DNA of 64,000 nt from an uncultured Bdellovibrionales bacterium (GCA_964496065.1 CAZBXD010000003.1:5806-69805); one strand, 5' to 3'. Shown: positions 24,797 to 44,183, counted from the first letter of the stretch. A program made the numbers and translations. Notes: a model not told the origin generated them from the letters alone.

Positions 24797-24811
24797 TTCT
24801 AAGGCCTCTCT

Positions 24812-27824: not shown

Positions 27825-27843
27825 GTCATCCTCGGTTTTCGTG

Positions 27844-27874: not shown

Positions 27875-27912
27875 TTCAAATTCGATACAGGTTACTAAAA
27901 CCTAACTGTCAA

Positions 27913-28122: not shown

Positions 28123-28194
28123 GTAACACTCCTCCATATGGTTTAGATCAGGGTCAGTAATATTCTTCAAATCTGAACCCTCACACGTTCCACC

Positions 28195-28227
28195 ATAATA
28201 TCGCCATACCTCTTAAAAACAAGTTAA
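28195..28227 (-). promoter_or_regulatory. Candidate CtrA-box promoter of flp (TTAA-N7-TTAA, N12, TATTAT)
   Basis: The minus strand reads ATTAACTTGTTTTTAAG-N11-TATTAT, about 90 nt upstream of the flp ATG. It is 14/16 identical to the box upstream of flagellin, with the same spacing to a -10-like hexamer. Confidence 0.45.
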
Positions 28228-28320
28228 TTTCCATAAAGTATGACTGGGTGAGGCGGTTTTTCGTTTCGATTTTTGTTAAAATTTTATATTACTTTCCAGC
28301 CAGTTAGCTCAATGATTGCA

Positions 28321-29607
28321 TCAACGTTGAATATGGAGGTTAGAGAGCTCATTACTGATTGTTTCAAACGCATCAATCAAATCGGTTTGTGATGGTGCAT
28401 CGTAGTATTTTGATAAATCTGTTGCGCATTGGCGATAGTAATCTTTGGTTGATTCACTAATGTTTGATTCAAAGGTGACTGTATAAATCAGAACCCCTTT
28501 TGATTTAAGGTCTTCGCATATTTCAGCAAAACGTTCATTCAAGTCATTCACAGTGATACTATGTTGCCAGGTTAGGCCATAGGCACTATAGGTTGGGTGT
28601 ACTGTATTTTGACCATCGGTCATCATCACAATAGCTTTGCGCCAAACCTCATCATCCCAATCGGCGCCTTCAGTAAAAGGAAATTCAGGAGAAATAACCC
28701 GGCCACCCCAGACCATGCCGTAATTCCCCAACGTATGACCATCTGCATTCATGTAGTTGATGGCACTATAAAGCTTTGTTGTATCACTGGTGAGAGGAAC
28801 AACAGTGGTGCGTGGGCAGCGGCTGTTACGATTACTCCCGGAAGGATAGCGGTAAATCTCCCACGGCCCCACAGCTTCTTGTGTATCAAGGGGATAAGTT
28901 AAGGCCTCGACGCATCCCAACCATTGCTGATTATTGGTTTGACTATAAACATAGCCGTTTGGGTTGTTAACGAAGGCTGTGTCATAGGGATTGCCATCTT
29001 CATCCTCACCAAGGCCGTAATAGCCAATATTCACTGAGTTACTGTAGGGGACAAGTGCTATTTTTATCGTGTCATCTTCTGGGGCACGATCATATAAAAT
29101 ATCAACAAAATTAGTCGCTGCTGTGCGTAGTGCAGCGATATTATTATTGCTACTCATTGATCCTGTATTATCCATTACAAGGGCGACTTCAATTCCGCGG
29201 GTTTCACGGACAACTTGGGCACTTGTGCTGACGGTGATTTTATCATAACCAAAAATATTCATAAATTTAGTATAGACATCTGCACTTGCACTGACGGTGA
29301 GAAGTTGGTCCTCTAAAACGAGGTTAAGATTATAAGGCTCTCCTAACCCTTGTGCAGGATAGTTGGCAAAAAAGAAATCTTCAAACCGCTGAGTAATGGC
29401 AGCGGTATCACCACTTGATGAAGCAGCGGCTAAAGCAGAGGCATCGAGAGAGCGCCCTAAACGGTCATGCACCAGATAAGCCTGGCCCATATCAACACTT
29501 AAGCCAACTGCTGCAATAATTGCCGGAATGGTTAGGCTAAAAGTGATGGCCACAATCCCCTCATTGCGGTGATTTAGTCTATTGAGAGCATATCGCAAAT
29601 TTTTCAT
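28321..29607 (-). CDS. tadG: TadG-like pilus assembly protein with von Willebrand factor A domain
   Basis: 428-aa ORF; N-terminal TadE/G-like hydrophobic segment (GIVAITFSLTIPAIIAAVGLSVDMG); MIDAS-like VMDNTGSMS. Confidence 0.75.
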   Translation of the reverse strand: MKNLRYALNRLNHRNEGIVAITFSLTIPAIIAAVGLSVDMGQAYLVHDRLGRSLDASALAAASSSGDTAAITQRFEDFFFANYPAQGLGEPYNLNLVLEDQLLTVSASADVYTKFMNIFGYDKITVSTSAQVVRETRGIEVALVMDNTGSMSSNNNIAALRTAATNFVDILYDRAPEDDTIKIALVPYSNSVNIGYYGLGEDEDGNPYDTAFVNNPNGYVYSQTNNQQWLGCVEALTYPLDTQEAVGPWEIYRYPSGSNRNSRCPRTTVVPLTSDTTKLYSAINYMNADGHTLGNYGMVWGGRVISPEFPFTEGADWDDEVWRKAIVMMTDGQNTVHPTYSAYGLTWQHSITVNDLNERFAEICEDLKSKGVLIYTVTFESNISESTKDYYRQCATDLSKYYDAPSQTDLIDAFETISNELSNLHIQR

Positions 29608-29609
29608 GA

Positions 29610-30152
29610 CTATTCCCTTGCAACAAAAGAATTTCGACGGCCACGCATAAACGCAACTTCCGTCATATCAATTTGGTTCAAAAATGTGCTACTAAAAGTT
29701 GGCTCATACTGATAGATCACAGTGACGGCGATCAAGCCCTCATTTTCGACTCCTAGGCCATCAGCAAGGTCTTCGACATTATCGTTTGGCGACATATTAA
29801 CGGTATCTCGCCAGATCACGGTTGGATCAGCATTATCGCCTTCAAAGCGGATTGCAGCAATATCAATCCCAAAGCTTGCCGTATCCAGGGGTTGTAGTGC
29901 AAGCTGTGCTGCCAAAAAAGCGTCATCAATATCGGCATCATCAGCTGTCAGTTGGCGTGTAACAAGATCAGCAGCCATTTGTGAGGCTGTAATCACCTTT
30001 TTATTCGTCAAAATACCATTGCCAAGGTCAACCATACCAAGGAGTAAAATAAACATGATCGGGAAGACCAAAGCAAATTCGGTCGCGGCGATGCCCTTTT
30101 CATCAGAGAACCAACGGCTTATGTGAAAATGTTTAAAATTCATACGGTTCAT
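29610..30152 (-). CDS. tadF: TadE/TadF-like pseudopilin
   Basis: 180-aa ORF; N-terminal EKGIAATEFALVFPIMFILLLGMVDLG (TadE-like domain). Confidence 0.7.
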   Translation of the reverse strand: MNRMNFKHFHISRWFSDEKGIAATEFALVFPIMFILLLGMVDLGNGILTNKKVITASQMAADLVTRQLTADDADIDDAFLAAQLALQPLDTASFGIDIAAIRFEGDNADPTVIWRDTVNMSPNDNVEDLADGLGVENEGLIAVTVIYQYEPTFSSTFLNQIDMTEVAFMRGRRNSFVARE

Positions 30153-30648
30153 TTCTCACGGTCGCTGTTGCCATGATTAAGGCAGATCGTGTACTGCCGC
30201 CAAGTAATGTTCCTAGCCATGGAGTTGAAAAGTTAAATCGATACGCCACACGTACGATCACAACTTCACTGGCGCCACCGGGGTCAAATCCCCCACTTTG
30301 TAGGTTGCCATCTGAATCAAAGACGGGCTGGACACCGGCTGCTTCACTAAAATTTACCCCATCCGGATTAATAACTTCGAATTGTAGATCCGAACAATCA
30401 ATAATTTCATCAACTTTGTCACATAATTCATCGGTAAAAGTTCCCAGAGGATCGCCAGATTCCTGGGCTTGTCCTGTGCGAATAATCCTTGCAGCTTGGA
30501 CAGTTGCTCCTTCCATAACGGTTGCACTGGCGTAATACATTCCTAATTCTAGAATGCCAATAACCATCATAAAAAAGGGCAGAGCAACAAAAGCAAATTC
30601 AATTGCGGTTACCCCTTTTTGATTTTTAATCAGTGAGCGATGGAACAC
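30133..30648 (-). CDS. tadE: TadE-like pseudopilin
   Basis: 171-aa ORF; N-terminal QKGVTAIEFAFVALPFFMMVIGILELG (TadE-like domain). Confidence 0.7.
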   Translation of the reverse strand: MFHRSLIKNQKGVTAIEFAFVALPFFMMVIGILELGMYYASATVMEGATVQAARIIRTGQAQESGDPLGTFTDELCDKVDEIIDCSDLQFEVINPDGVNFSEAAGVQPVFDSDGNLQSGGFDPGGASEVVIVRVAYRFNFSTPWLGTLLGGSTRSALIMATATVRNEPYEF

Positions 30649-30840
30649 CCAAACTTACCCCTCGTTATCACGCGAAAACCTCTCTCACAGCACAAAATAA
30701 CATCCAATAATGCTATCGGATGTTTTTATATTTTTACCGTCCTATTGAATTCTCATTATATCTTAAAGGATTTAATAATTTTTGAAATTATATGTAAAAT
30801 TTTAACTATTTTTAGGTGTTTTTGTATTTAAAGCAATGCG

Positions 30841-33800
30841 TTAGCTGTGGTTAACCACTTCTGTCTGATTTTTTCTTGGTTTATCCTCATTTGTACGCGG
30901 GCCTTCAATTTTTGAAATATCTCCAACAGCACTAAGGGCTTTTTCCGTCATTAAATCAACAAGCTCTTGAACAATTTCTTCAGTAACATAACTGGTGGTT
31001 GATTTAGAAGGATCTCCTGCTTCTGCATAAAAATCAATCCGGCGTTTAATTTCACTGCGTGCTGATCCACCAGGATAAGAGGCTGCCAAAGCTGTTCGAG
31101 CACGCGCCGCACCAAGACGAATATAGAGACGCTTGCGGATTGCTACATCTTCTGCAGAAGTTGATAATGCCCATAATTCAATTGGACCAAGGGTGTTAAT
31201 GAGATGCTGCTCATAACGTCCTTCATTTGTCCCAAGAATAAATAGCGCTGGACCGCCACTGGAACGCGGGCCGGTCAGGCGATTACGCATAATCCAAACC
31301 GCAGTGTCAGTAAGACTAAAACGGTCACGCGCCTCTTGGACGGCATTATCACTAATTGCGGCCCCTAAAACCCAAACGCCGGTCGCTAAATCGACCATAT
31401 CATCGTCAAAGTCTTTTAAAAGCTGGGAGGATAGGACAATTTGAACGCCCCATTTACGCCCTTCGCGAACATCTCGAATAATTTGCGAGCGGACGGCTTG
31501 AGATTTACTAGTTCGGTGAAATTCATCATAACAGAGGCGTTTTGGTGTTTCTTTAACATCACGAAGGCGGATTTCGTGGTAGGATTGGTATTTTTTGGGC
31601 ATATAACGAATAGCTTCTTCGTTAATCCACCAATTCCGAACTAAGACATGGCGAGCAAGCATATACATAATCGCAGTTTGGCGGTCGGCAGTTTGGTCGC
31701 CTTGTGGGGAGACGTCCATCAAATCTAATGCACAAACACGGGTTGTTCCAATATCAAACTGTGTCACAGAAGATAAAATGGGGAGTTCACGAATAGACGA
31801 TGAAATCATTCTCTCAAATGCGTTGATAACGTTTTCATTACTGCCGCCAATTTGGGTTTCTTCAAGAAGGGATTGAATTTGTGGTCGACGTGCGGCTGTA
31901 ACGGCATCAGTCAAGGTTGGAACAGCATGACGTTGTGCCAAAGATGCGCCATGATGTAAATCATTATCAAATAAAATATCAACAACATCCCACCAAAGGG
32001 CATTCTGTGGCAGGTGGATATTATGTTTTTGTAGGATTTCATCTACTTTTTCATCTACGCGAGGTAGATAGGGTCGCGGTTCAGAATTTGCTTCTGCATC
32101 ATTACGCCAGCGGAACATTTCGTCAACAACAAGACCTGCAAGTTGAGGGATGCCATCATAGGGGCGATCTTGCCCGGGCGGAGTTGCAAGAAGCGTGATA
32201 AGTTCGATTAAGTAGCTTCGTTCATCTTGGAGCGGATTACGACATCCCAATTGCGTATCAAACGGGTTAATCGCGTATTCAGGACTCATACTGATGCGAT
32301 AGCTCCCAACCTCATGTGCGCGGCTTGGTGGGAGGGCGTCCTTGAGAAGAGAAATCAAGCCAGAAGACGATGGGCCAATATCAATTACAGCAATATAGGG
32401 AAGTTGCGATACGCCACCGGTCAAGACTGTTCCTAAATTCAGTGTGTTCATTAAAACAGATTTACCAGCTCCAGGTTGGGCAAAAATCAAATCAAACCAG
32501 GTGGTTGTAAGATTAGTCCCTGTTTGGTATGGCCAAACCTTACCATCTGGAGAACGTAAAATCATAGAGCCATTTTCAAACGGACTACTGGGGCGCTGCC
32601 ATGGCAATAGTTTAAGGACTTCTGATAAGGGGGCAATTGCTGCGGGGGCTGTTGACCCACAGGCAATCCCCGGTACAGAGGACATGACCTCATCTAAAGG
32701 ATCGCCAGAAACCTGGCTTACTTGGCAATATCCCCAGCTTTCAAGACCTTGGGTTAGAATGGCAGCCCGATCTTCAATCAAGTCTCTCATGCCTTCAGGT
32801 GCCCAGGTTGCGGCAGAGATACGGAGTTTAACAACTGGCTCATCCTTGGCTAAATCGGATAGGTAATCGATCGATTGTTTAATTTGTCGATTGACCCCAT
32901 TTGTAATCGCTAGAATTGATGCAACCAGTGTTTTCGTCTGGGCTCCTTGAATCCCTCCCCCTTCGATGAGGAAAGAAATACGAAAGGGAATATCTGCTTC
33001 AACAAAACGAGAAAGAAGCTGCGGGAATGGGTTGGGGTCGGTTGGCGGCAGGGTAACATCAACGCCTGACCAGTATCTATTGCCGATTTTAACAATTGAA
33101 GAAGAGATCACTTCAGCATCATAAGTACATAATTGCTGGCGAATAGGGGGCCAGAGAATATCTGAGTAGTCTTTTGGACGTTTGGGGGCACGCGCTGGAA
33201 TTGGATCTCCCGGTAAACAGGGTTGCCATTTGTCATTAGCTCGACCAGGAAAAATGGCGGAGCGGATGGCTCTAAGTGCATCATGAACCTCCATGACTTG
33301 GGATTGTATCCCAAGCTCATTTAGAGAAGAACGAATAGTGGCAACATAAGAGCGATGTCGTGTGCGTAACCCATCAAGCGCTGCGTTGACCCTTTGGGCA
33401 CCCCCAGAAGGGACCCAATTTTGAATCTTTTTTACGCGTTTATCTTTTTCCCGGGCTGCTTCGGGTTTTGATAAGCTACTCGGGCGGGTCCATAAGACAA
33501 AGTAACATTCCTCCCAAGCAAGAAAATTTCTTAAATGTCGAACACGTTCATCAAAAACATCATCAAGGTTAAGTCCTGCAGCCTCAGCGGCCCGCCGATT
33601 TGATCGCATTAGATTTCGTAATTCCTTGCCGATACGATCTGGATTGCGAATAAAAACAACTTGCAACGCATAGCCAGTTCGATCAAACCGTGCACCAAGT
33701 TTCATCGTGCCTTGTTCAATGATATTATTATATTCGTTGGCTCCGATAATTTGTCGGCTTCCGTCAACCTTTACAAGGGTAACCATTGAGCCATCCTCAG

Positions 33801-33906
33801 CAACAAGGGTGACATCATCATCGGCGGTTTCAATCCGAATGAAGGATTCAAGTGATTGCTTTGCCATGGTTGCAAAAGGGGCAATAAAGCTATCAAGCCA
33901 TTTCAT
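30841..33906 (-). CDS. icmB/dotO: Type IVB secretion ATPase IcmB/DotO (TraU-like)
   Basis: 1021-aa ORF; Walker A AQPGAGKSVLMN; family hallmarks IAVIDIGPSSSGLISLLK, INPFDTQLGCR, DEFHRTSKS, REGRKWGVQIVLSSQ, GPIELWALSTSAED. Size matches the roughly 1000-aa IcmB. Confidence 0.9.
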   Translation of the reverse strand: MKWLDSFIAPFATMAKQSLESFIRIETADDDVTLVAEDGSMVTLVKVDGSRQIIGANEYNNIIEQGTMKLGARFDRTGYALQVVFIRNPDRIGKELRNLMRSNRRAAEAAGLNLDDVFDERVRHLRNFLAWEECYFVLWTRPSSLSKPEAAREKDKRVKKIQNWVPSGGAQRVNAALDGLRTRHRSYVATIRSSLNELGIQSQVMEVHDALRAIRSAIFPGRANDKWQPCLPGDPIPARAPKRPKDYSDILWPPIRQQLCTYDAEVISSSIVKIGNRYWSGVDVTLPPTDPNPFPQLLSRFVEADIPFRISFLIEGGGIQGAQTKTLVASILAITNGVNRQIKQSIDYLSDLAKDEPVVKLRISAATWAPEGMRDLIEDRAAILTQGLESWGYCQVSQVSGDPLDEVMSSVPGIACGSTAPAAIAPLSEVLKLLPWQRPSSPFENGSMILRSPDGKVWPYQTGTNLTTTWFDLIFAQPGAGKSVLMNTLNLGTVLTGGVSQLPYIAVIDIGPSSSGLISLLKDALPPSRAHEVGSYRISMSPEYAINPFDTQLGCRNPLQDERSYLIELITLLATPPGQDRPYDGIPQLAGLVVDEMFRWRNDAEANSEPRPYLPRVDEKVDEILQKHNIHLPQNALWWDVVDILFDNDLHHGASLAQRHAVPTLTDAVTAARRPQIQSLLEETQIGGSNENVINAFERMISSSIRELPILSSVTQFDIGTTRVCALDLMDVSPQGDQTADRQTAIMYMLARHVLVRNWWINEEAIRYMPKKYQSYHEIRLRDVKETPKRLCYDEFHRTSKSQAVRSQIIRDVREGRKWGVQIVLSSQLLKDFDDDMVDLATGVWVLGAAISDNAVQEARDRFSLTDTAVWIMRNRLTGPRSSGGPALFILGTNEGRYEQHLINTLGPIELWALSTSAEDVAIRKRLYIRLGAARARTALAASYPGGSARSEIKRRIDFYAEAGDPSKSTTSYVTEEIVQELVDLMTEKALSAVGDISKIEGPRTNEDKPRKNQTEVVNHS

Positions 33907-34012
33907 CAGATCAATTATCTCTCTTAATTATTGTCAACATAGTAGCTGAAGAACTCCGTTAGGTTAAGACCTATCAAGTAAAAAAAAAGATAAAGAGAAG
34001 AAAATAGTTTCT

Positions 34013-34705
34013 CTATGAAACTTTCTCGATCTCCTTATACATGCCCCCCCATTTTTCAGTAGAAATTTCAGTGAAAGGCCCACCTTTTTTCGTACGCCAA
34101 TAAGCTAAGTGTTTCGGGAAGGCGTTAAGTTCAACCCCCCTATCATTAATAACTCGGCGATCAAGCGGCAGTAAGCGGATGCCTTTTAACTTATTATTGA
34201 CCCGCCGATATTGTTTATCATTGAGGAAATCTTCTAAAACAACAGCAAGGTCAGAAGGATTATCAGATCCGAGACGCTTTTTTGCTTCAAGACGTCGCTC
34301 CTTGAGAGTGTGCAAAACAGCCTTACTAGCTTCTGACAGAGGACCTTGTGCAAAGCGAGCAACATAAAGCGCGCGCACAATGTGGTGTAGCGCTGCTTGT
34401 CCGATCTCTGGCAACCAGATCAGAACACCAGAATGCATCTTTGCAACGCTAACTAAATCAAAGCATTGATGACAAAAGGTACAGGCTGTTAAACAATTTT
34501 CATCAGAAAAATCATCCGTGAAGCCATTCTTGTGATAGATTTCTTGATATTTTTCGGCCTGAAAACCACAAAACTGGCAGGTATAATTATCCCGCTCAAA
34601 GATTTTATTTCTTTCAAGTTCGTGATCTTTTGCAAAAGAACGCGCTGGGGGATTGCCAGACCAATCATCGCGATGAACGCCAAGCCGTAAAGGATGATAT
34701 TTCAT
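34013..34705 (-). CDS. icmJ/dotN: Type IVB secretion protein IcmJ/DotN (Cys-rich zinc-binding type)
   Basis: 230-aa ORF; RDNYTCQFCGFQAEKYQEI...CLTACTFCHQCF Cys cluster as in DotN; position immediately upstream of icmB. Confidence 0.8.
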   Translation of the reverse strand: MKYHPLRLGVHRDDWSGNPPARSFAKDHELERNKIFERDNYTCQFCGFQAEKYQEIYHKNGFTDDFSDENCLTACTFCHQCFDLVSVAKMHSGVLIWLPEIGQAALHHIVRALYVARFAQGPLSEASKAVLHTLKERRLEAKKRLGSDNPSDLAVVLEDFLNDKQYRRVNNKLKGIRLLPLDRRVINDRGVELNAFPKHLAYWRTKKGGPFTEISTEKWGGMYKEIEKVS

Positions 34706-34747
34706 AAAGTTAGAATAGTTGATTTTGGATTATTATTCAATAGTTCA

Positions 34748-35131
34748 CTAATTGTAAAGGGCTGGACGATTAACAATTGCCGCATTTGCGTCCCCGCCAA
34801 TCGTATCAATTGCAACATTAATTGCAAAAGGGAGCGCAATCAGTGCGGCACCAATCCCAAGACGAGCGAGGGCATCTTTCATATGGTTTTGCGATTGATT
34901 GTCAACATAATCACGCATTTTAATGAGCCCCATAATCGTAAACCCAATTCCAGTTAAATAAGAAATCGATGAAAAAAGCGCAGGAATCCACCCCATGTTG
35001 AAGGTAACGCTGTCCATTACCGTCCCAACATTTTGAGCCTGTGCTTGTTTTGGTGATAAAAGAAGAAGCCCTCCGACTATCAGAGTGAAATGAAAAATGT
35101 AAAGTCGGGTCATTATCACTCTAATAATCAT
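34748..35131 (-). CDS. icmD/dotP: IcmD/DotP-like small membrane protein, paralog 3
   Basis: 127-aa ORF; signal-like N-terminus plus two TM segments; shared core YLTGIGFTIMGLIKMRDYVDN...MKDALARLGIGAALIALP; position between icmC and icmJ. Confidence 0.6.
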   Translation of the reverse strand: MIIRVIMTRLYIFHFTLIVGGLLLLSPKQAQAQNVGTVMDSVTFNMGWIPALFSSISYLTGIGFTIMGLIKMRDYVDNQSQNHMKDALARLGIGAALIALPFAINVAIDTIGGDANAAIVNRPALYN

Positions 35132-35164
35132 AAGGGCTTCTCTTAAAACTAGCGTATCAGTTTT

Positions 35165-35539
35165 CTAAAAATTCATATCACCTGCGTTAAAGTCTAGGTC
35201 GGCAGGTCCAGCGCCCATCGTGTCGGAAGATGTTGTAATGACAAATGGAATCAGGATGAGCAAGGCACCAACCGCTAAGCGAATAAGGGCATTTTTCATG
35301 TTACCACTGCTTGGATCATCGACATATTCTTTCAATTTGAATAGACCAGCAATCGTAAAACCAACCCCCATAATATAGGCGGCACTGGTAAACAAAGATG
35401 GAATTTCCCCTAATTGGCCTTGAATATCCTTTGATACTTGACCAAGCCCGGCTTGAGACTGTGAAATAGTAATGAGAGATGTTGTCAATCCGGCCGCAAA
35501 GCCGTATTTGAGTGTACTAAGTTTCTTTGACATTGTCAT
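35165..35539 (-). CDS. icmD/dotP: IcmD/DotP-like small membrane protein, paralog 2
   Basis: 124-aa ORF; core YIMGVGFTIAGLFKLKEYVDDP...MKNALIRLAVGALLILIP. Confidence 0.6.
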   Translation of the reverse strand: MTMSKKLSTLKYGFAAGLTTSLITISQSQAGLGQVSKDIQGQLGEIPSLFTSAAYIMGVGFTIAGLFKLKEYVDDPSSGNMKNALIRLAVGALLILIPFVITTSSDTMGAGPADLDFNAGDMNF

Positions 35540-35608
35540 GAGTGACCTCCTATGGTTGTGGTTGAAACTTAAAAGTAGTTCGTTAAAAAACTGATAAACT
35601 CCCGTTAG

Positions 35609-36007
35609 TTAGTTAAAAACGCTTAAATCTTGTCGTCCTGGTTCTGTTTGCAAGCCTTCAGCGCCAAATGTTGCCGCTGAGGTGACAATAACCCAAGGTA
35701 GAAAAATTAACATGGCGCCAACGCCAAGCCGGATCAGGGCATCTTTCATAAAACTCCTATTTGGGTCATCAACATATTCCTTCAGTTTTAAAAGACCGGC
35801 AATGGTAAAACCAATTCCCATGATATAGCATACAGACCGCAAAAGAGTAGGCACAGTACTTATTTCACAGTCAAGTTCCTGAGTGATTTCAGCCAGATTT
35901 GATGTGGTCGCACCACAGTTTTGGGCATAGGCCAAGGAGCTTTGCAGAAATGCTACTGTTACAAAGCTTGAGAAAACCAGATTGTTATGTTTAATTTTTT
36001 CTATCAT
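35609..36007 (-). CDS. icmD/dotP: IcmD/DotP-like small membrane protein, paralog 1
   Basis: 132-aa ORF (same size as Legionella IcmD); core YIMGIGFTIAGLLKLKEYVDDP...MKDALIRLGVGAMLIFLP. Confidence 0.65.
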   Translation of the reverse strand: MIEKIKHNNLVFSSFVTVAFLQSSLAYAQNCGATTSNLAEITQELDCEISTVPTLLRSVCYIMGIGFTIAGLLKLKEYVDDPNRSFMKDALIRLGVGAMLIFLPWVIVTSAATFGAEGLQTEPGRQDLSVFN

Positions 36008-36013
36008 ACCTAA

Positions 36014-36940
36014 TTAACCGACATTGAAGAAATGAGACCCAGGGTCCATAAAGGTTTCTTGAATAATACTTGCAAAGGCTAGCCCGTTCGCTAACATAGC
36101 GCCCGCGGCAATATGCGTTACAGCCGCCATGATAGAGGCATTCCCTGCCCCTTCGGTGGCGCCCCGCAGAATAAACAGCCCACGAATAAAACTAATATAC
36201 CCAACAATTCTGAGGAAGGCAAAAACCCCCCACATGGCATCTTGGGCCCGTTGGGTAAACTCACCGCCTCCTCCTGTGAAAACAATATTTGTATATAAGT
36301 TGTTTTGCCCAAAAAGTGTTCCTTGAGAAATATTCATAAGATATCCAACAGACATTAACCCAGCCGCAACAAAAAATGTCGTCATGGTTCCAAGACCACC
36401 CGGCGCCTGAGGTCCATCATTGGAAGCAAGGGCTAATCTCTTAAGTGCAACGAGCATCAATGTAATACCTGCAGCGTAACAAAACAGCGGCAGTAAATTA
36501 TCCATAAAAGGAGCCCAGATGTTATTAATAATACGGTTGAGAACCCCGTCAAGACCATCGCCACCACCAGGTCCACCAGTGGCCATAGTAACTACACCAG
36601 CGCCACCGACACCAGCTCCTGAAATTGTTTCAACCAAAACATTAGCAGCATAGGGTGTTAGAATAAGCAAACCAGAAGCTAAAAATCGTAAGGCAACATG
36701 TAAGAGTTTTACGTCTCCTGGACTCTCACTATATTGTCGTGCCATCTTAAGACCAGAAAATGCGCAAAAAACCCCAAGAATATAGGCAATAGAGGATAAC
36801 AGAATTTGAATGGGGGTAAGGGCAAGATAGGTTGTTTGCGCCATATCACCCAATGTTGTAGCACCGGCCCAGGCTGATTCTGCGCTAAATACTGCAAAAA
36901 ATGCAGAAAAAACAAATATTTTCAGTGCGTTGTTCTTCAT
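36014..36940 (-). CDS. icmC/dotE: IcmC/DotE-like polytopic membrane protein
   Basis: 308-aa ORF. The N-terminal module is related to the IcmD paralogs (YILGVFCAFSGLKMARQYSESP...LRFLASGLLILTP), followed by a Gly-rich linker and further TM segments. Position between icmG and icmD. Confidence 0.5.
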   Translation of the reverse strand: MKNNALKIFVFSAFFAVFSAESAWAGATTLGDMAQTTYLALTPIQILLSSIAYILGVFCAFSGLKMARQYSESPGDVKLLHVALRFLASGLLILTPYAANVLVETISGAGVGGAGVVTMATGGPGGGDGLDGVLNRIINNIWAPFMDNLLPLFCYAAGITLMLVALKRLALASNDGPQAPGGLGTMTTFFVAAGLMSVGYLMNISQGTLFGQNNLYTNIVFTGGGGEFTQRAQDAMWGVFAFLRIVGYISFIRGLFILRGATEGAGNASIMAAVTHIAAGAMLANGLAFASIIQETFMDPGSHFFNVG

Positions 36941-37078
36941 AATCCCACAACTGCATGACTTTACATACTCAATTTAATCATGTTTTATAATAAATTTCAA
37001 CTAAAATTTTATATAAATTTAATATATCATCAAGATTTGGGGTTAAAGAAAAATAAAATTACAAAAAATAGTATAAAA

Positions 37079-38308
37079 TTATTGATTTATATCGCCACCT
37101 GTTGTTTTAACAATCCATTTCCCATTTTCTTGTGCAATTGATTGAATGACACCCATTCCAGGAATGGCTTGTCCAACACTGTAACGCTGCATTTCTGAAT
37201 TATTGGTTTGAGACAGCCAGGCAATGCCAGGTTGTGCAGAACGCAACACCCACTGTTTGGCAACTGGTTTTGGCGCCGGTTTTGCCTCTCGAATAGGTGG
37301 AGATTTTTGCGGCTCACCCTTAGCAGTAGCCTTTGCGGGAGTGACTGCTTTTGCTGTTGATTTTTGTGTCTTTGTTACTTTTTCAGATTGAGTCATTGCA
37401 TTTATTTTTTCACTCAATTGATCGAGACGATGTGTTACTTGCAGCATTTGTTGCGAGAGGGTGTTGAGTTTTTCTTTCTCATCCTCGGCTAGACCTGTCT
37501 TGTCTGCACTAGGCGTTTCTGAAGAAGGAGTTTGTTGCATAGTTTCAAGTTGCAGACTCAAAGCCTGTAAACTTTGTTCAAGCATTTCTATGCGTTGGGC
37601 TGTCGCGTTATCTTGCGGCAAAGACTGTGAGACAACGGGAGGCAAAACATCTTCAGTTACGTAAGTGTCTTCTGATTTTTCTCTGTCGCTGGGTTTTGAA
37701 GTGACTTGGTTCGTTTCATTGATGTTTTTGTCAAAGTCTTGCATAGGGGGAGTTTCGTCCCTGTTTATAGCAGTTGCTTCGTCTTTTTCAGGGCGTTCAA
37801 TTTCAATGAGATCTTCGGGAAGTGCTGGTGGTAAAAGCGCAGTATCTTCTTCGGGTATGCGCTGTTGCTGTACATCACTCGCCTCAGCAGCAGCTTCTTT
37901 AACTGTAGGTGGGGCAATATCAGAGACTGTGTCAGGATCAGGACCAATTGGAGTTGGCATGGGCGGCGGTGGCAACGGGGTAGGGGATTGAGCTTGTTCT
38001 ATATTCGTAGAAGGGGCTGGTGGAATGGCAATGGCTTGTGTGTCTGATGTCTGCTGTGTAGCAGGGGTCTTCTGACCCATGAAAGGCAAAGACTGTCCTA
38101 ATAAAAAATAACCAGCCCCAACAATGATAAGTAGGGCAAGAATAAGAAAAAGAACAAATTTTCCACCTGATTTCTTTTTCCCTATATTTTCATGGGGGTC
38201 TTCAAAATCAGAATCAGAAAAATCATCTTCTTCAAGAACATCACCGGTATCGATATGGTCTTCATCAAGTTCAAATTCATCATTAGGATCTATGCTATTG
38301 TCAGCCAT
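37079..38308 (-). CDS. icmG/dotF: IcmG/DotF-like bitopic protein (assignment mainly by position and topology)
   Basis: 409-aa ORF; acidic N-terminus, one TM (FVLFLILALLIIVGAGYFLL), long Pro/Thr/Gln/Glu-rich and coiled-coil periplasmic part, compact C-terminal domain (WVLRSAQPGIAWLS...VGQAIPGMGVIQSI). Confidence 0.45.
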   Translation of the reverse strand: MADNSIDPNDEFELDEDHIDTGDVLEEDDFSDSDFEDPHENIGKKKSGGKFVLFLILALLIIVGAGYFLLGQSLPFMGQKTPATQQTSDTQAIAIPPAPSTNIEQAQSPTPLPPPPMPTPIGPDPDTVSDIAPPTVKEAAAEASDVQQQRIPEEDTALLPPALPEDLIEIERPEKDEATAINRDETPPMQDFDKNINETNQVTSKPSDREKSEDTYVTEDVLPPVVSQSLPQDNATAQRIEMLEQSLQALSLQLETMQQTPSSETPSADKTGLAEDEKEKLNTLSQQMLQVTHRLDQLSEKINAMTQSEKVTKTQKSTAKAVTPAKATAKGEPQKSPPIREAKPAPKPVAKQWVLRSAQPGIAWLSQTNNSEMQRYSVGQAIPGMGVIQSIAQENGKWIVKTTGGDINQ

Positions 38309-38351
38309 GGTTGGTTAGTTTCCGTTCAGTAAAAGTGATTTATTTAAGTTG

Positions 38352-39680
38352 TTAGTCTTCAAAAATACTGTCGAGGAAAAGAATACCAAGACGAGTACCA
38401 CTGGCAACTTTAACAGTAAGTGTTTTTCGATCAGCTTCATCATCGAGAATTTCAGAAAACTCTTCTGCCGCTTCTTCAAAACCAGCAAGAAGTTCATCTC
38501 CAGTATCTAAGTCATCTTGCGATTGAGCAACAGTTTCTCCTTCAATAGTAACAGTTGTTCCTTGTCTAACAGCAGCAGAAGCCCAACCTTCAACAAATTT
38601 AGCTGCTCCAGGCAGGAAAACCCGTGTGAAATAGTGATTATCAACATCCGTTGCGACCCCTGTGAGCGTTGTTGCTGGATCAACTGCGATCGCGTTAATT
38701 GCATATTCTTTACCGTTGAGAACAGCTTTACTGAAGGCAAGGACAAGATATTTATCTTGTAGAGAGAAATTTCCTAAAATACGAGCACCCGCAAGAGGGC
38801 CAGAAGCAATTTGTGCCAAGATAGGACCTGGAATATCAGAATTTGCCTGCGTCATCATCTGGCCATATTCAATAGTTCCAGCAGGGAGAAGCATTACTTG
38901 TGGTTCTTCTTCTGTAAGAGGGTCTTCATTAGCAGTTGTTCCACTGTTAGCAGCGGCCATTTGTTGTTCTTCAAGAGCTGGGTTTTCAATAACATATCCA
39001 GGGAGAATACCCTGATTAACGAGAACAGATTGTTGAGGAATCTGTGCTTGCAAAATCGCTTGCATTTGATTTTGAATATTTTGTGTCAAATTACCCACTT
39101 GCTCTGGCGATGGGCCGGTCGGCAGTTGTTGTATCATTTGTTGGCGTGGATTAATTTGTGGCGCTGGAGGAAGAGCGGGTGCAGCAACTTCTTCTGTTTT
39201 TTCTTCAGGGGTGTTGGGAAGGGTTGGTGGTCGTTCACGATTACGCTCTTCCCGACGTTTTTCTGCTTCACGACGCCACTGTGCGAGGGGGTCCTCTTGC
39301 TCTGTTTCTTCTGGTGCTTCAATTCGTTCAGTTGGACGCCCAATTGGAGTGGGTAAAGCGCTACCACCAGTTATCTCAGCTTCTTTTGCCCGCTGATCAT
39401 CAGCAGCCTCCACCGCTTCCTCATAAGCGGGAGTTAATTCCGCTTGCCCAGGAGCTTGTGTAACGGTGTTAGCAGAAGAGACGAGGGATAAGTCGGGCTT
39501 TTCATCATTACCGCCAATAAAAAGAAATGCTAAGATAGCAACGCCAATTGCCCCAACAATAGCAAAAAGCTTAAGGGCAGGGTTGTTATTCCAAACATCC
39601 GCCAGAGATACTTTTTGTTGCTGACCTTCTTCGAAATCGTCATCATCGTCATATAGGAGGGGGTCTTCTTCATTCACCAT
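38352..39680 (-). CDS. icmE/dotG: IcmE/DotG-like protein, short TraO-like form with VirB10/TrbI-type C-terminal domain
   Basis: 442-aa ORF; acidic N-terminus, one TM, Pro-rich linker, C-terminal TrbI-like domain (TQANSDIPGPILAQIASGPLAGARILGNF...AVDPATTLTGVATDVDNHY). Confidence 0.7.
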   Translation of the reverse strand: MVNEEDPLLYDDDDDFEEGQQQKVSLADVWNNNPALKLFAIVGAIGVAILAFLFIGGNDEKPDLSLVSSANTVTQAPGQAELTPAYEEAVEAADDQRAKEAEITGGSALPTPIGRPTERIEAPEETEQEDPLAQWRREAEKRREERNRERPPTLPNTPEEKTEEVAAPALPPAPQINPRQQMIQQLPTGPSPEQVGNLTQNIQNQMQAILQAQIPQQSVLVNQGILPGYVIENPALEEQQMAAANSGTTANEDPLTEEEPQVMLLPAGTIEYGQMMTQANSDIPGPILAQIASGPLAGARILGNFSLQDKYLVLAFSKAVLNGKEYAINAIAVDPATTLTGVATDVDNHYFTRVFLPGAAKFVEGWASAAVRQGTTVTIEGETVAQSQDDLDTGDELLAGFEEAAEEFSEILDDEADRKTLTVKVASGTRLGILFLDSIFED

Positions 39681-40698
39681 AGCGCGGCTCTTCTCTTTCT
39701 AATCGAACACGGGTCATATCTCCGTTATCAGATAAGATAACAACCGGTGCATCATTAATAACATAAACATTCATCCCGTCTGAAGATGAAGCGCTTCCTT
39801 GCCAAGTTGGAGAAAGCATTGTATGCGGGGTGCGGACGTAAACATTGCCCGCCATACGATAGGCTGTTGTTCGGCCATCTGTTCCGGTAGTTATTAAACG
39901 CTCAGCATCGCTTGGCGGAACCCCTTCTAAAATACCGGTAACAACTTGATCGCCGGCTACAATGTTCAAACCACCACCACTGATGATGGGCATATCTGCG
40001 TTGGGGCCGTATTCTGGAACGCGTGCATCAAATCGATAATGGACTGTATCGCCGCCGGTTGTAAGGGTAAATGTCAATGGTGTTGAAAAATCAAGAAGAC
40101 GAACGGACATATTTCCAGAAGCAAATTCTTTTAAGGGGGTAATACGAATAACATGACCACCAGGCTCTGGGGGTTTCACATCATAGGGACCGCCAAAACC
40201 AATATCAACAATTGGCCATGGTTCCCCCGTGATATCAAGAATTGTTAAGCTGGTGACATTATCAGGGGCCAACATAATAACTGGCGGCATTGCGGATGGA
40301 TCAAGCTTCATATCCTCAACCTGAATATCAGGGGTTGGCGGCCTATATACAGGTTTTTGAATGGCTTCTTGCGTCGTGCGTAACCTGGTCATGAAATCTT
40401 TGATTTCATCATCTTCCATGGGAAGAAAACTTGTGGTCGCGCGGTCAAGCGCTTCATCATGCGCCCTCTCTTTGATTTGTTGCAGGCGCTCTTGCTTAAG
40501 ATATTCAAATTCTTCCAAAAGATCTGGATCAAGCGCCATATCTGGATTGGCGGCGACCTCAGATGGGATCGGTGGGGGAAGTGTTGCCTGAGCCAAGGCC
40601 AGAGACGGAATAAGGGCAAAGCTTAGGACACTAGAAACCAGCAAAATACGAAGAGGTTTTCGCCATATATCTTTTTTAACATCGGTATGGATAGGCAT
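39670..40698 (-). CDS. icmK/dotH: IcmK/DotH-like outer-membrane-associated core protein (TraN-like)
   Basis: 342-aa ORF with signal peptide (LSFALIPSLALAQA). Size and position between icmL and icmE match IcmK; overlaps icmE by 11 nt. Confidence 0.6.
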   Translation of the reverse strand: MPIHTDVKKDIWRKPLRILLVSSVLSFALIPSLALAQATLPPPIPSEVAANPDMALDPDLLEEFEYLKQERLQQIKERAHDEALDRATTSFLPMEDDEIKDFMTRLRTTQEAIQKPVYRPPTPDIQVEDMKLDPSAMPPVIMLAPDNVTSLTILDITGEPWPIVDIGFGGPYDVKPPEPGGHVIRITPLKEFASGNMSVRLLDFSTPLTFTLTTGGDTVHYRFDARVPEYGPNADMPIISGGGLNIVAGDQVVTGILEGVPPSDAERLITTGTDGRTTAYRMAGNVYVRTPHTMLSPTWQGSASSSDGMNVYVINDAPVVILSDNGDMTRVRLEREEPRYGE

Positions 40699-40785
40699 GA
40701 GATCCGACTTTTGCTCCTATGTGTTTAACCCGTTCAATAAATGCCAAAGCTCTAAATAATTATTTAAAGTATGCTGTATTTTTTC

Positions 40786-41478
40786 CTATCGTGCAATCCA
40801 TTGTTGGATCCCAATTCCAGAGGGGTTATCCAAAGTTGAAACCCGTACAATAATCATACGAACTTTAACGTTATTGCTTTGTTGGGCGGCCCCTGCTTGG
40901 TATGTAACAATTAGCGGGAGTTCAACAATCCAGCGATAGATCCCATTAACCAAACCCTGTTGGATGATAACAGGCGCTTGTTGTGGGGCGGCGGTAACAA
41001 TTTGCTGGTTTTCTTCAACAGCTTCAATAATACGGGCACGATCAAGCGCCTCGGTAAAACTTTGCCAGCCACGGCGTGTGAAATAGGTGGATGATTCTTG
41101 TAACCGGCGCTGGTAATCATGAAATCCGAAGGTCATAATTTCTGATGCCGCACGAGCAGACCATGATACGATCGCCGCATCATTTAAATTTGGTTGCCCT
41201 AATGGGATCATTCTCACTAATCGCCCATCAGAAGTGGTCGCAAAAAACCGATCTTGCGGTTTTGACATGGAAACAGCAACCACAAGACCAACAATTAGAC
41301 CAATAATTGCCATCCCTTGGATTAAAACAAGGCGGGTTAAATTGCGGTACCCATCTCGATAAAAAGCGTTGCGTGTGACAACTGCGTTCAAAGCACTGGT
41401 ACTAAAACCACGATCTTTTTCGCTGGAAGGGGCTGATTTCATTTGATTTTTCGGCTTATTTTCCGGTTTTTTGGCCAA
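40786..41478 (-). CDS. icmL/dotI: IcmL/DotI-like inner-membrane protein (TraM-like)
   Basis: 230-aa ORF; NAFYRDGYRNLTRLVLIQGMAIIGLIVGLVV matches the IcmL N-terminal motif plus single TM; first gene of the block. Confidence 0.75.
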   Translation of the reverse strand: MAKKPENKPKNQMKSAPSSEKDRGFSTSALNAVVTRNAFYRDGYRNLTRLVLIQGMAIIGLIVGLVVAVSMSKPQDRFFATTSDGRLVRMIPLGQPNLNDAAIVSWSARAASEIMTFGFHDYQRRLQESSTYFTRRGWQSFTEALDRARIIEAVEENQQIVTAAPQQAPVIIQQGLVNGIYRWIVELPLIVTYQAGAAQQSNNVKVRMIIVRVSTLDNPSGIGIQQWIAR

Positions 41479-41710
41479 GGATCCCTCCCTTTTTCAGATT
41501 TACGCCATCCCATAATAGCGTCACTTTACGTTTGAGACCATTAATATTTTATTGATGGTCATGCGTTTAAATTTGCTTTTGTTGATTAAAGACTTGCAAT
41601 ATTGTTTATATTTTAGTAAAATTTTAAATGTTAGTCAAGCTGTTGGGTAAAGATATCTTTTTTTTCCTTGAAAAGTAAGATAGGATTAATCTGGATTACG
41701 GAGTGAAATA

Positions 41711-42985
41711 ATGGGTCAATCCATTCGGAAAATAAAAACAGTAAGTTTTTTCTGTTTAATGGTTTTTTCCTTACTTATACTTAATATCCAAAAAGCACAG
41801 GCGGCATGCGCCCCACCGCGTTCGGCATCCTCCTCAGCATCGAAGGTGGCGTCTACCTTGTCACGGGATGCGTCTTCGATGGGGGGGACTCTTACATCCC
41901 GAATTGGTAGGATTACGACTGAGTTTACAGCATCTTCTCAGCTTTTGATGCAACAAATCTCTCTTGCCTTAGGGGGGGTTGCCACTGCGGCTTCGGCCTC
42001 TGGAGAAAATATTGCTAAACACCTTTATAAAGTAGGTGATGCCTATCATACTAAAAAGGTAAACCTGCGGCTAGATTTTATTGCTCAGGAAATCGCCCGC
42101 GATAATATGATAGGCACATCTGATTGTATTATTACAACTGGTCGCCAATATAGAGGTGAGTCAAAAAGACTAGCAGAGGCAGCCGCAAATGCAATAGCAG
42201 GTGATTATCTTCTCGCTGTAGATAGTGCTGGTAGCTCGCTTAATATTTCAGATGCAGCAAACACAATTGAATTTCAAGCCGATCTGTTTCGGTATATGAT
42301 GGCTAACTATTGTAATCCGGATATGAATGGCGGTTTGGTGCCGACCGCGGCCAATCCGGTACAAACAGGATCCAGGCAGGTATGGTGTGGTATGGACCGC
42401 GGCGCAGGTGACGAATGGTTAATGGATTTTCACCTCAAGGCCCCCGCAATGTTGACCTCTCCATCACGCTTGATAGATGATCCTAGGGCGCATGAAGGGG
42501 TCATGGTGACCATGATGCTGCTTTTAGGGTTGCCGATGGATAAAATCAGCCTCCCGTCTTATGATACCCAAGCTGGGCAAGCTGCCTTTGTCGAACGGGT
42601 TAGAGCACAATCAAAGCGAAATCTGCCAGCAACATATATTGCTCGGCAATTTGGTAATATTATGCCAACCGTAGGCGATCAAGGAACAGAGTGGGCGCGA
42701 GAGATTTTGCATTACACCGAAGGCCAAGGCGCACACCCGTCAGTTACCCGTTATATCAATGCTAATTATGGTGACAATATTAGTTACAGTCAATTTATAG
42801 ATGCTATCGTAAAATATGTAACAACAGGGGCACAATATAGTCTTGATAATAAAGGCTTGAGTAAAGGCCAGTATCGACGGGCTGAAAAAAATTCTCGTGA
42901 TTTATTGAATTACCTTCAAAGTGAACGCCTATATGAAGCCCGCATTCGGAATCTTCTATTGGCGGCAAAGCTAGCGACTAATTAG
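41711..42985 (+). CDS. Secreted protein of unknown function, paralog A (divergent from icmL)
   Basis: 424-aa ORF; GGAG Shine-Dalgarno; signal peptide ending AQA followed by ACAPP; shares blocks with the next ORF (HLYKVGDAYHTKKVNLRLDFIAQEIARDNM / SLPSYDTQAGQAAFVERVR). Confidence 0.6.
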   Translation: MGQSIRKIKTVSFFCLMVFSLLILNIQKAQAACAPPRSASSSASKVASTLSRDASSMGGTLTSRIGRITTEFTASSQLLMQQISLALGGVATAASASGENIAKHLYKVGDAYHTKKVNLRLDFIAQEIARDNMIGTSDCIITTGRQYRGESKRLAEAAANAIAGDYLLAVDSAGSSLNISDAANTIEFQADLFRYMMANYCNPDMNGGLVPTAANPVQTGSRQVWCGMDRGAGDEWLMDFHLKAPAMLTSPSRLIDDPRAHEGVMVTMMLLLGLPMDKISLPSYDTQAGQAAFVERVRAQSKRNLPATYIARQFGNIMPTVGDQGTEWAREILHYTEGQGAHPSVTRYINANYGDNISYSQFIDAIVKYVTTGAQYSLDNKGLSKGQYRRAEKNSRDLLNYLQSERLYEARIRNLLLAAKLATN

Positions 42986-42995
42986 GGGATGTCGA

Positions 42996-44183
42996 TTGGG
43001 AATTAGTAAGATGATCCGAAAAAAGCCACAAATACGCCTGATCTGTTTAAGTTTGATCTGTTTTCTCGCAATTATTCCGCGGGTTAGTCATGCTCAGGTT
43101 TGTGCATGTATCCCACCTGGTGAACCAAGTTTAGCACATTCAGGTCTTCAAGGAGTAGTTCAGGCAGCCATTGAAGCAGCAGAACAGTCGATTGGTCGTG
43201 CCCTTGATGCACTGAAGGGGGCCCATAATACCCATTTTACTGAGCTTACAAAAAGAATATCCCTTGGGGCAGCGGGGGCAAGCACATCAATATCAAAAGC
43301 GGGCGATCTCATTGTTAAAACCCATTATAAAATCGGTGATGCTGCTCATTCAAAGGAACGTGACCTAGAAAAAGATGTTATTGGAGAAGGGCTTGCGCGT
43401 GACAATATGGTAACGGCTTATGGCTGTATGCGTGTGACAGAGCGATCAACAAAATCAGAATCAGCGTTACTGGCGAAAGCGGCAGAGGAAGCATTAATTG
43501 AACAATCCATTCAGCGGCTCAATAATACTGAAGGATTAACAAATATCGAAGCTGTTGCAAGAGACTATCAATATGCCTTGCGTTATGTTAACTTAAATAT
43601 GCCGAATGCACCACCTGGGGCGGGCGGCGGTTTTGTTGGTGGGGATAAAAATTTCAATGCAATTTTCAATGAAGGGACTCTTTCACCAGAGGGGTTAGAG
43701 ATGACAAAACAAGCTTTACGCCATCTCAATGATCCCGGGACTCAAAAGCGCGCCTTGCCTTCTTATGGAACTCAATCTGGGCAAGCGGCCTATATTGCCG
43801 AAGAGCGCCGTAAGGTTAGGAAAATTATCACGGATATCTTTTTTGCAAAGATGATGGCGGATGTCATGCCAACATCGAGTGATGGGGAGGCACATACCGC
43901 GCGTAGGCTTCGCAATGAAGGTGTTAATCCAGATCAAGCCGTGGCACAGTATATTCAGGCCGATCATCTAGATCAGGTAAGTGAAGCCGCTAAAAGGAAA
44001 GTCCAGCGTGAGGGTTTTCTGTCTGCTCAAACGGCACTTGACGATATCGGTAACAGCCAAGGCGGTTCCAGTATGGCAAGGCTTGAGGATTTAGCTATAG
44101 CCATCGAAGCGGAGTATAACGGTTTATTGCAAGATCGAATGAACAATATACTTCTGGCGATTGAATATGCTGATATGATTTAA
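42996..44183 (+). CDS. Secreted protein of unknown function, paralog B
   Basis: 395-aa ORF (TTG start preceded by AGGGGA; alternative ATG at 43011); signal peptide ending SHA followed by QVCACIPP; blocks THYKIGDAAHSKERDLEKDVIGEGLARDNM / ALPSYGTQSGQAAYIAEERR parallel paralog A. Confidence 0.6.
   Translation: MGISKMIRKKPQIRLICLSLICFLAIIPRVSHAQVCACIPPGEPSLAHSGLQGVVQAAIEAAEQSIGRALDALKGAHNTHFTELTKRISLGAAGASTSISKAGDLIVKTHYKIGDAAHSKERDLEKDVIGEGLARDNMVTAYGCMRVTERSTKSESALLAKAAEEALIEQSIQRLNNTEGLTNIEAVARDYQYALRYVNLNMPNAPPGAGGGFVGGDKNFNAIFNEGTLSPEGLEMTKQALRHLNDPGTQKRALPSYGTQSGQAAYIAEERRKVRKIITDIFFAKMMADVMPTSSDGEAHTARRLRNEGVNPDQAVAQYIQADHLDQVSEAAKRKVQREGFLSAQTALDDIGNSQGGSSMARLEDLAIAIEAEYNGLLQDRMNNILLAIEYADMI

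Follow-up and report, generated by a model that had tools for sequence, protein, structure and literature searches.

The window analysed here, a stretch of 64,000 nucleotides (64 kb) from an uncultured Bdellovibrionales bacterium (CAZBXD010000003.1:5806-69805), carries on its minus strand, at positions 30841-41478, a block of ten genes in the order icmL-icmK-icmE-icmG-icmC-icmD (three copies)-icmJ-icmB. We consider it likely that this block is the core operon of a chromosomal, vertically inherited and effector-translocating Dot/Icm-like type IVB secretion system (T4BSS) of a Micavibrio-related host. The host itself is probably an uncultured Micavibrio-related alphaproteobacterium with a small genome, and, judged from related loci, it is most probable that the block belongs to a split machine rather than a reduced one.

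All ten open reading frames (ORFs) are intact and were found where a previous interpretation of the window, made without database searches and referred to here as the sequence-only reading, had placed ten consecutive minus-strand genes; the intergenic spacing within the block ranges from -11 to 138 nt. The gene order which that reading had likened to icmL-to-icmB and traM-to-traU is indeed colinear with traM-N-O-P-Q-R-(S)-T-U of IncI1 plasmids. The genes of the block, from upstream to downstream, are as follows:

40786-41478, minus strand: icmL/dotI, bitopic inner-membrane component, 230 amino acids (aa) (PF11393, NF038072)
39670-40698, minus strand: icmK/dotH, outer-membrane core complex subunit, 342 aa, with signal peptide (PF12293)
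38352-39680, minus strand: icmE/dotG, short form, 442 aa (NF033900 and DotG in the Protein Data Bank, PDB)
37079-38308, minus strand: icmG/dotF-like bitopic protein, 409 aa (NF038218, position equivalent to IcmG/TraP)
36014-36940, minus strand: polytopic membrane protein at the icmC/dotE (traQ) position, 308 aa (mainly position)
35609-36007, minus strand: icmD/dotP (traR)-like small membrane protein, copy 1, 132 aa (DUF6750, 20.6 bits)
35165-35539, minus strand: icmD/dotP-like small membrane protein, copy 2, 124 aa (DUF6750, 32.8 bits, above the cutoff of 27)
34748-35131, minus strand: icmD/dotP-like small membrane protein, copy 3, 127 aa (DUF6750, 23.4 bits, and alignment with its paralogues)
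34013-34705, minus strand: icmJ/dotN, 230 aa, predicted soluble (NF038221, DotN in the PDB)
30841-33906, minus strand: icmB/dotO, VirB4-family ATPase, 1021 aa, predicted soluble (named homologues, motifs, TraU alignment)

Profile searches with the block proteins returned strong Dot/Icm family matches for IcmL, IcmK, IcmE and IcmJ. IcmL scored 198.9 bits against PF11393 and 199.6 bits against NF038072 (exceeding the cutoff of 175), is 25.5% identical to IncI1 TraM (E 1.6e-16), and carries the previously noted N-terminal motif NAFYRDGYR followed by a single transmembrane (TM) helix at residues 51-69. IcmK covers the full PF12293 model (235.7 bits), is 29.8% identical to IncI1 TraN (E 6.5e-28) and possesses an N-terminal hydrophobic signal that ends in ALA-QA. 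The layout of IcmE comprises an acidic N-terminal tail, one TM helix (38-56), a Pro/Gln/Glu-rich linker and the VirB10/TrbI-like C-terminal domain that had been proposed for this position: the C-terminal 290 aa scored 154.5 bits against NF033900 (model positions 717-1004), with 92.9 bits against conj_TraO_IncI1 and 29 bits against TrbI (PF03743), and the C-terminus matched DotG of the Legionella core complex (PDB 7muc, E 1e-19); identity to IncI1 TraO is 26%. IcmJ, at 100.7 bits, is level with the NF038221 cutoff of 100 and matched Legionella pneumophila DotN (PDB 5x1h/6sz9, E 5e-23) with both CxxC pairs retained; the DotN-type cysteine cluster RDNYTCQFCGF...CTFCHQCF was located in this protein, which is 24% identical to IncI1 TraT (E 3e-7).

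For the 1021-aa IcmB, neither Pfam nor NCBIfam has a matching family, and no chain in the PDB matches it by sequence. It has more than 2000 homologues, many of which are labelled IcmB by NCBI or JGI (64-90% identity), and it aligns with IncI1 TraU along 958 residues (27.8% identity, E 2e-112). The hallmark motifs attributed to it, AQPGAGKSVLMN, IAVIDIGPSSSGLISLLK, INPFDTQLGCR, DEFHRTSKS and REGRKWGVQ, were all located, and neither the Walker A motif GAGKS (479-483) nor the Walker-B-like motif DEFHR (794-798) varies among 15 diverse relatives.

The ten gene labels of the sequence-only reading were thereby upheld for IcmL, IcmK, IcmE, IcmJ and IcmB, and those of IcmG, IcmC and IcmD draw on weak profile matches plus position. 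IcmG, which has a TM helix at residues 52-70, scored 48.8 bits (E 7e-13) against NF038218 IcmG_DotF, under its cutoff of 200, and had no sequence match in the PDB; it evolves rapidly, its orthologues being 34-39% identical where IcmB is 87-90% identical. The 308-aa protein is a probable IcmC/DotE as far as its sequence and position indicate: it scored 23.9 bits against DUF6750, contains at least four hydrophobic segments, and gave a probability of 56% for TraR and an E value of 0.005 for TraQ in hhalign comparisons. Its N-terminal module resembles IcmD and can be aligned with the three small paralogues. Among the latter, copy 2 is 35-41% identical to copies 1 and 3; the IcmD-like proteins have a predicted signal peptide plus two TM helices, and their family profile aligned with IncI1 TraR at a probability of 59.5% (E 9e-5). 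The predicted topologies fit the gene assignments throughout. The block therefore provides an IcmB/DotO-type ATPase with intact Walker motifs, the core complex proteins DotH/IcmK, DotG/IcmE and, with its score under cutoff, DotF/IcmG, and the inner-membrane proteins DotI/IcmL, IcmC/DotE and IcmD/DotP, the last two with weak profile matches, as expected of a T4BSS.

Relatives and partner genes

An identical IcmB is on record solely in one 71-kb NCBI contig. The arrangement of the window, in which two divergent genes for secreted proteins (U1 and U2) lie upstream of icmL and a Tad pilus operon lies downstream of icmB, recurs on two other assemblies (ENA ERZ25072999 and Logan SRR33375167), whose IcmB proteins are 87% and 90% identical to that of the window. 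One of these is a 1,649,955-bp ENA contig (ERZ25072999 ctg321529), which the '_c' suffix of its name, by assembler convention, suggests to be circular. When IcmB relatives were scanned for with one genome per species, 322 species-level genomes were found to encode one. The best 80 of these 322 (61-74% identity) are all metagenome-assembled genomes (MAGs) labelled Micavibrio sp., Alphaproteobacteria, Rhodospirillales or Pseudobdellovibrionaceae/Bdellovibrionales; their chromosomes measure 1.3-2.5 Mb and include closed ones of 2.3-2.5 Mb, and most keep the order icmL-K-E-G-C-D(1-3)-J-B, flanked by housekeeping genes, for instance yidC and ubiH-like genes.

An exhaustive IcmB search at 50% clustering retrieved one cluster at 62% identity, followed by unnamed metagenomic clusters at 43-49%; the top plasmid match, from Rhizobium pRlX5, reached 43.6%, and IncI1 TraU approximately 27.7%. 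The placement of IcmB, which the sequence-only reading had left to a phylogeny, was addressed with a rough neighbour-joining tree (a quick distance tree) that included IncI1 TraU, and in this tree the MAG sequences form one clade far from TraU. The T4BSS has apparently been inherited vertically in this lineage. The alphaproteobacterial affiliation proposed in the sequence-only reading holds, and the system is not an oddity of one genome, since it is conserved across a radiation of Micavibrio-like MAGs. Two tandem IcmL-like genes precede icmK in some related loci (L020, L076, L106, L107, L111, L118, L139, L150 and L157), a pair which recalls Legionella IcmL/IcmM (DotI/DotJ); the window has one.

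The sequence-only reading had left it open whether the block is part of a split locus or an unusually reduced machine, and related genomes favour the former. Among 80 further loci that an IcmK profile retrieved from metagenomes, a DotM/IcmP homologue (NF033890, 169-195 bits) directly follows icmB in four, which represent three distinct sequences as two carry an identical copy, and in three of these four a DotA/TraY homologue directly follows icmG (TIGR04346, 272-274 bits, cutoff 100). This DotM-linked lineage branches beside the clade of the window in the IcmB tree. In a sister clade (IcmB 71-73% identical), icmB is either isolated, with xerC-like and groES/EL genes on its two sides, or accompanied by no more of the block than icmC-D-x-J, and this scattering indicates that these genomes tolerate dispersal. 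Upstream of icmL in 11 relatives, no icmM-T genes were seen, the region holding housekeeping genes, copies of the c8 gene described below or a second IcmL-like gene only.

It is unlikely, in our estimation, that the ten genes, perhaps together with U1/U2, constitute a reduced but self-sufficient machine which works without DotA, DotB, DotC, DotD, DotL and DotM and is possibly coupled to the Tad pilus. Such a machine would be in keeping with the lack of any other Dot/Icm gene in the 64 kb, with the icmL-to-icmB limits, which are alike in most of approximately 120 related loci, and with the small 1.65-Mb genome of one relative. However, DotM and DotA adjoin the block in the related contigs described above, and the disruption of the block in sister genomes implies that adjacency is not required. 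Furthermore, DotH needs the lipoproteins DotC/DotD for its insertion into the outer membrane, and to our knowledge DotN has no role outside the DotL-DotM-DotN coupling complex (structure 6sz9), and would thus lack one in the absence of DotL. One study likewise describes DotN as a partner of DotL/DotM (PMC5802825). In addition, supplementary file 4 of the genome paper of Micavibrio aeruginosavorus ARL-13 lists GMV_383 as 'icmO' (dotL, 2583 nt) near gyrB and argS (PMC3189940), away from any other dot gene in that table. With regard to the coupling complex, DotN is present in the window, DotM in related contigs only, and DotL in the ARL-13 'icmO' entry only.

The ARL-13 table also contains a 1215-nt gene whose length would suit DotM (GMV_385), a 2994-nt hypothetical gene of icmB size among flagellar genes (GMV_1708), and approximately 900-aa membrane proteins (GMV_196-198) beside vacJ/ttg2, a context in which contig L126 has DotA. 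An IcmB query from a MAG named 'M. aeruginosavorus' returned no protein of a cultured strain in the best 120 matches; as the query protein itself was also missing from the database, the result is uninformative for ARL-13.

Chromosomal setting

The remainder of the window contains rpsU beside a COQ9-family gene, the signal recognition particle RNA (ffs), dnaX, ybaB, tyrS, a ClpA/B-type ATPase gene and prmA, in addition to the motility and signalling genes for a flagellin, a methyl-accepting chemotaxis protein and a PAS histidine kinase. The composition of positions 30.8-41.5 kb was compared with that of the flanks and proved to be similar: GC content is 0.448 in the block and 0.437 in the flanks, relative synonymous codon usage correlates at r 0.87-0.92 (0.94 in a split-half control of housekeeping genes), and tetranucleotide usage at r 0.946. 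The matching GC, codon and tetranucleotide usage, together with the housekeeping genes, indicates that the region is native chromosomal DNA of an alphaproteobacterium-like organism, in agreement with the chromosomal context proposed from the flanking genes and with the Micavibrio-like and alphaproteobacterial MAGs that hold the closest IcmB relatives.

Across the 64-kb window (ORFs of at least 90 aa), no relaxase, integrase, type IV coupling protein (T4CP) or further Dot/Icm gene was detected. The previously noted absence of DotA, DotB, DotC, DotD, DotL, DotM, a relaxase, an integrase and a tRNA boundary next to the block was thus confirmed, the sole tRNA gene of the window lying at 60.1 kb, 19 kb from the block; similarly, the gene lists of close relatives contain no relaxase within approximately 10-30 kb of it. 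These observations make it very unlikely that the block is the mating-pair-formation module (MPF_I) of an integrated conjugative element or I-type plasmid dedicated to DNA transfer, for which a relaxase, an oriT and a linked T4CP on a mobile element would be expected. The gene order is the same as that of IncI1 traM-traU, and the closest plasmid-borne IcmB-like gene (pRlX5, 43.6%) lies beside genes for a TrbC-type coupling protein and RecD2/UvrD/RecJ-like enzymes. However, no relaxase, integrase, repeat boundary or tRNA is present at the block edges, the composition is host-like, the chromosomal position is common to three assemblies, and the block occurs radiation-wide with housekeeping flanks. 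Moreover, identities to IncI1 proteins are merely 24-30%, and Dot/Icm-specific models outscore IncI1 models, as seen for IcmE (154.5 versus 92.9 bits) and for IcmJ (DotN E 5e-23 versus TraT E 3e-7). The pRlX5 locus of Rhizobium leguminosarum (L082, NZ_CP140867.1 280784-323750), in which the IcmB-like ATPase gene adjoins these RecD2-, UvrD- and RecJ-like and TrbC-type genes, was dropped as a search seed because no IcmL, IcmK, IcmE or IcmJ homologue was found within 20 kb on either side.

That the block represents a decaying, inactive relic of an ancestral T4BSS appears more improbable still. The unseen partner genes and the rapid divergence of IcmG and the IcmD copies could be taken in this sense, but the ten ORFs are intact and compactly spaced, the catalytic motifs are invariant, and between relatives IcmB is 87-90%, IcmL 83-86% and IcmK 74-79% identical where U1 is 38-40% identical; such conservation beside a diverged U1 indicates purifying selection. 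Finally, an assembly or binning artefact joining a Legionellales-type fragment to alphaproteobacterial DNA, which might be suspected because the T4BSS is portrayed in reviews as characteristic of Legionellales and of intracellular Gammaproteobacteria related to them (PMC11338181, PMC8896642), is scarcely credible, since the U1/U2 and tad junctions are the same in the independent assemblies of the window, ENA ERZ25072999 and Logan SRR33375167, the composition is homogeneous across these junctions, and the block recurs on dozens of long contigs from alphaproteobacteria.

Neighbouring genes and putative function

The following features adjoin the block:

19455-30648, minus strand: complete Tad/Flp pilus operon, comprising tadE, tadE, tadG, flp, cpaA-F, tadB and tadC (Pfam)
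30699-30724, minus strand: terminator-like hairpin with an 11-bp stem between icmB and the tad operon (pattern match only)
41610-41638, minus strand: sigma-70-like promoter candidate, TTGACT-17-TAAAAT, upstream of icmL (consensus scan, 10/12; pattern match only)
41711-42985, plus strand: U1, divergent secreted protein, 424 aa (signal peptide; U2 is its paralogue)
42996-44183, plus strand: U2, secreted paralogue of U1, 395 aa (31% identity to U1)

Of the tad genes downstream, the sequence-only reading had named cpaD alone; this gene is present, and it belongs to a complete Tad operon with Pfam matches to TadE (twice), Tad/VWA, Flp_Fap, Peptidase_A24, RcpC, Secretin, CpaD, T2SSE and T2SSF (twice). 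The operon lies on the same strand directly downstream of icmB, separated by a 192-nt gap (30649-30840) that contains the hairpin. The icmB/tad junction is common to the two closest assemblies (L001 and L085) and absent from other Micavibrio-like loci, and a functional link between the pilus and the T4BSS may be inferred. The gene order of the operon equals that of the attack-phase-induced tad locus GMV_527-538 of ARL-13. On the opposite side, the promoter candidate is located in a 232-nt AT-rich intergenic region from which icmL and U1 diverge.

U1 and U2 matched no Pfam or NCBIfam family, and the same applies to c8, a secreted protein of approximately 450 aa whose gene, present in one to six tandem copies, is oriented divergently to icmL in the majority of Micavibrio-like loci (at least 35 relatives). 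The two families appear to be remotely homologous (hhalign probability 90%, E 1.4e-6); the combined family contains cysteines, and copies lie upstream of icmL in, for example, L095, L100, L109, L147 and L158. Both proteins diverge rapidly, U1 being 38-40% identical in relatives (including 40% in a genome with an IcmB of 90% identity) and U2 25% identical to its orthologues. An AlphaFold model of U1, built on a three-sequence alignment, reached a pLDDT of 38 and was too poor to use. As lineage-specific proteins, U1 and U2 are candidates for accessories or cargo of the T4BSS, and the functional extent of the block probably includes them. An identification of U1/U2 or c8 as IcmX/TraW is not supported, as hhalign comparisons with IncI1 proteins gave probabilities below 1% (a weak test, the targets being single sequences). 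A further protein of approximately 170 aa, c3, is encoded directly after icmB in 64 of 80 Micavibrio-like loci (e.g. L040, 12997-13521), but neither in the window nor in its closest relatives; it matched no NCBIfam or Pfam family, and an assignment to TraV/TraX is not supported by the hhalign probabilities, which were below 1% against IncI1 proteins, again in a weak test with single-sequence targets. Beyond U2, a gene for a 438-aa fusion of TPR repeats and a SAM-methyltransferase (44184-45500, minus strand) is convergent with and abuts it. Elsewhere in the window, the longest exonuclease III-like ORF (48750-49658, plus strand) overlaps ybaB (48542-48856, plus strand) by approximately 100 nt, and its start is probably located further downstream.

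In the proposed Dot/Icm-like system, IcmL/DotI, the IcmC/IcmD-like proteins and IcmG/DotF would form an inner-membrane platform, and IcmE/DotG and IcmK/DotH an envelope-spanning and outer-membrane core, with IcmB/DotO as the VirB4-type energising ATPase and IcmJ/DotN as a subunit of the coupling complex. The DotC/DotD lipoproteins, DotA, DotB and DotL/DotM would be encoded elsewhere on the chromosome. The machine is presumed to translocate protein effectors, not DNA, into a cell on which the bacterium has docked; the adjoining Tad pilus could plausibly supply attachment, and the fast-evolving secreted U1/U2 beside icmL may act as lineage-specific accessories or cargo. Protein translocation is preferred over conjugation in view of the missing relaxase and integrase, the native and conserved position, the lineage-wide presence and the higher scores of Dot/Icm models relative to those of IncI1.

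A number of points weigh against this interpretation. DotA, DotB, DotC, DotD, DotL and DotM were located neither in the 64-kb window of this genome nor in the analysed part of the 1.65-Mb relative, so that completeness of the machine is deduced from relatives; DotB was seen in no relative, and DotC and DotD were not seen beside the block in approximately 160 related loci. The ARL-13 entries are the authors' annotations and gene lengths, and the text of the same paper says that evidence of a type IV secretion system is lacking (PMC3189940). The taxon labels of the relatives are the names given by submitters. No effectors, IcmS/IcmW adaptors or translocation signals were identified, no test having been aimed at them, and the Sec signal peptides of U1/U2 are atypical for classical Dot/Icm substrates.

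Bacterial prey and a eukaryotic host are both candidate targets of the proposed system. For bacterial prey, it may be argued that the named cultured Micavibrio relatives are obligate epibiotic predators of bacteria and that the block is joined to the Tad operon in the clade of the window; in ARL-13, tad/flp genes show some of the highest attack-phase expression (flp GEI 705; PMC3189940), and a bacteria-killing T4BSS is known from Pseudomonas putida IsoF (PMC9519443). For eukaryotic hosts, ankyrin-repeat genes flank the block in seven related loci (L118, L142, L151/L152, L129, L160 and L009). In L118 (1097-7624 and 18965-20807), five such genes occupy the exact divergent slot that is held by U1/U2 here and by c8 elsewhere; these arrays, as sequence features, hint at eukaryotic targets in that sub-lineage. 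The same locus also carries a DUF6782 metallopeptidase. A more far-reaching proposal, according to which the T4BSS would be an ancestral, order-wide Micavibrio weapon that injects effectors into Gram-negative prey after Tad docking, provides a 'leeching' conduit and has U1/c8 as its prey-facing components, is put forward tentatively and is in our view rather doubtful.

Comparison with known systems

Literature searches that paired Micavibrio with T4BSS terms yielded no paper with a description of this system. Needham et al. (2022) recorded, in a single sentence, pT4SSi detected by MacSyFinder in seven marine Micavibrionales MAGs (PMC9418006), and the system of the window is very probably the same as these and as the MAG proteins annotated as IcmB by NCBI and JGI. 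That mention does not go into the genes present, their synteny or dispersal, any accessory families or the function. The present data describe the T4BSS as a native chromosomal system across a large Micavibrio-like radiation, widespread yet almost undescribed. We know of no established feeding mechanism in the cultured Micavibrio predators, and the block is a concrete candidate for a Micavibrio-type feeding apparatus or, alternatively, a sign that part of the group lives with eukaryotes.

The gene order is like that of region II (icmL-K-E-G-C-D-J-B) of the Dot/Icm systems of L. pneumophila and Coxiella burnetii, with which the block also shares a chromosomal location without a relaxase nearby. 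As further likenesses to the Legionella system, IcmL and IcmJ reach the NCBIfam equivalog cutoffs, and the zinc-binding cysteines of DotN and the C-terminal domain of DotG are matched. The block differs from that of Legionella in its alphaproteobacterial host, in a DotG of 442 aa as opposed to 1048 aa, with the long repeat region missing, in its three IcmD paralogues, in the linked U/c8 family and in the Tad junction of this clade. Furthermore, there is no icmT-S-R-Q-P-O-N-M upstream and no icmF/H downstream, the remainder presumably being dispersed over the chromosome, and the nearest non-alphaproteobacterial IcmB cluster representatives are just 43-49% identical to the protein of the window.

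The MPF_I of IncI1 (R64-type) plasmids resembles the block in its colinear genes, in pairwise homology to TraU, TraN, TraM, TraO and TraT, and in the short, TraO-like form of DotG. Conversely, the nikA/nikB relaxosome, thin pilus, shufflon and downstream traV-W-X-Y of these plasmids are absent here, the system is not plasmid-borne, and its sequences are much more divergent from IncI1 than from Dot/Icm models.

The kib locus of P. putida IsoF encodes a T4BSS that delivers toxic effectors into Gram-negative bacteria on contact (PMC9519443). Like kib, the system of the window is a T4BSS outside intracellular pathogens, and the mode of action of kib is what a role in predation would need. However, kib was acquired recently, as a 67-kb genomic island that carries an integrase, is lower in GC and encodes the complete machine in a single cluster. 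The system of the window, by contrast, is an ancient possession of its lineage with a native composition and presumably dispersed genes, and no effector-immunity pair was identified here. If functional against prey, it would be the second independent bacteria-targeting T4BSS, and one in a true predator, which would extend the T4BSS from a hallmark of intracellular pathogens to an organelle of bacterial predation; if functional against eukaryotes, many 'Micavibrio-like' MAGs would be eukaryote-associated, as the ankyrin arrays suggest. Either outcome would alter the view of this group and of the evolutionary history of Dot/Icm systems, and the question is testable in a culturable organism.

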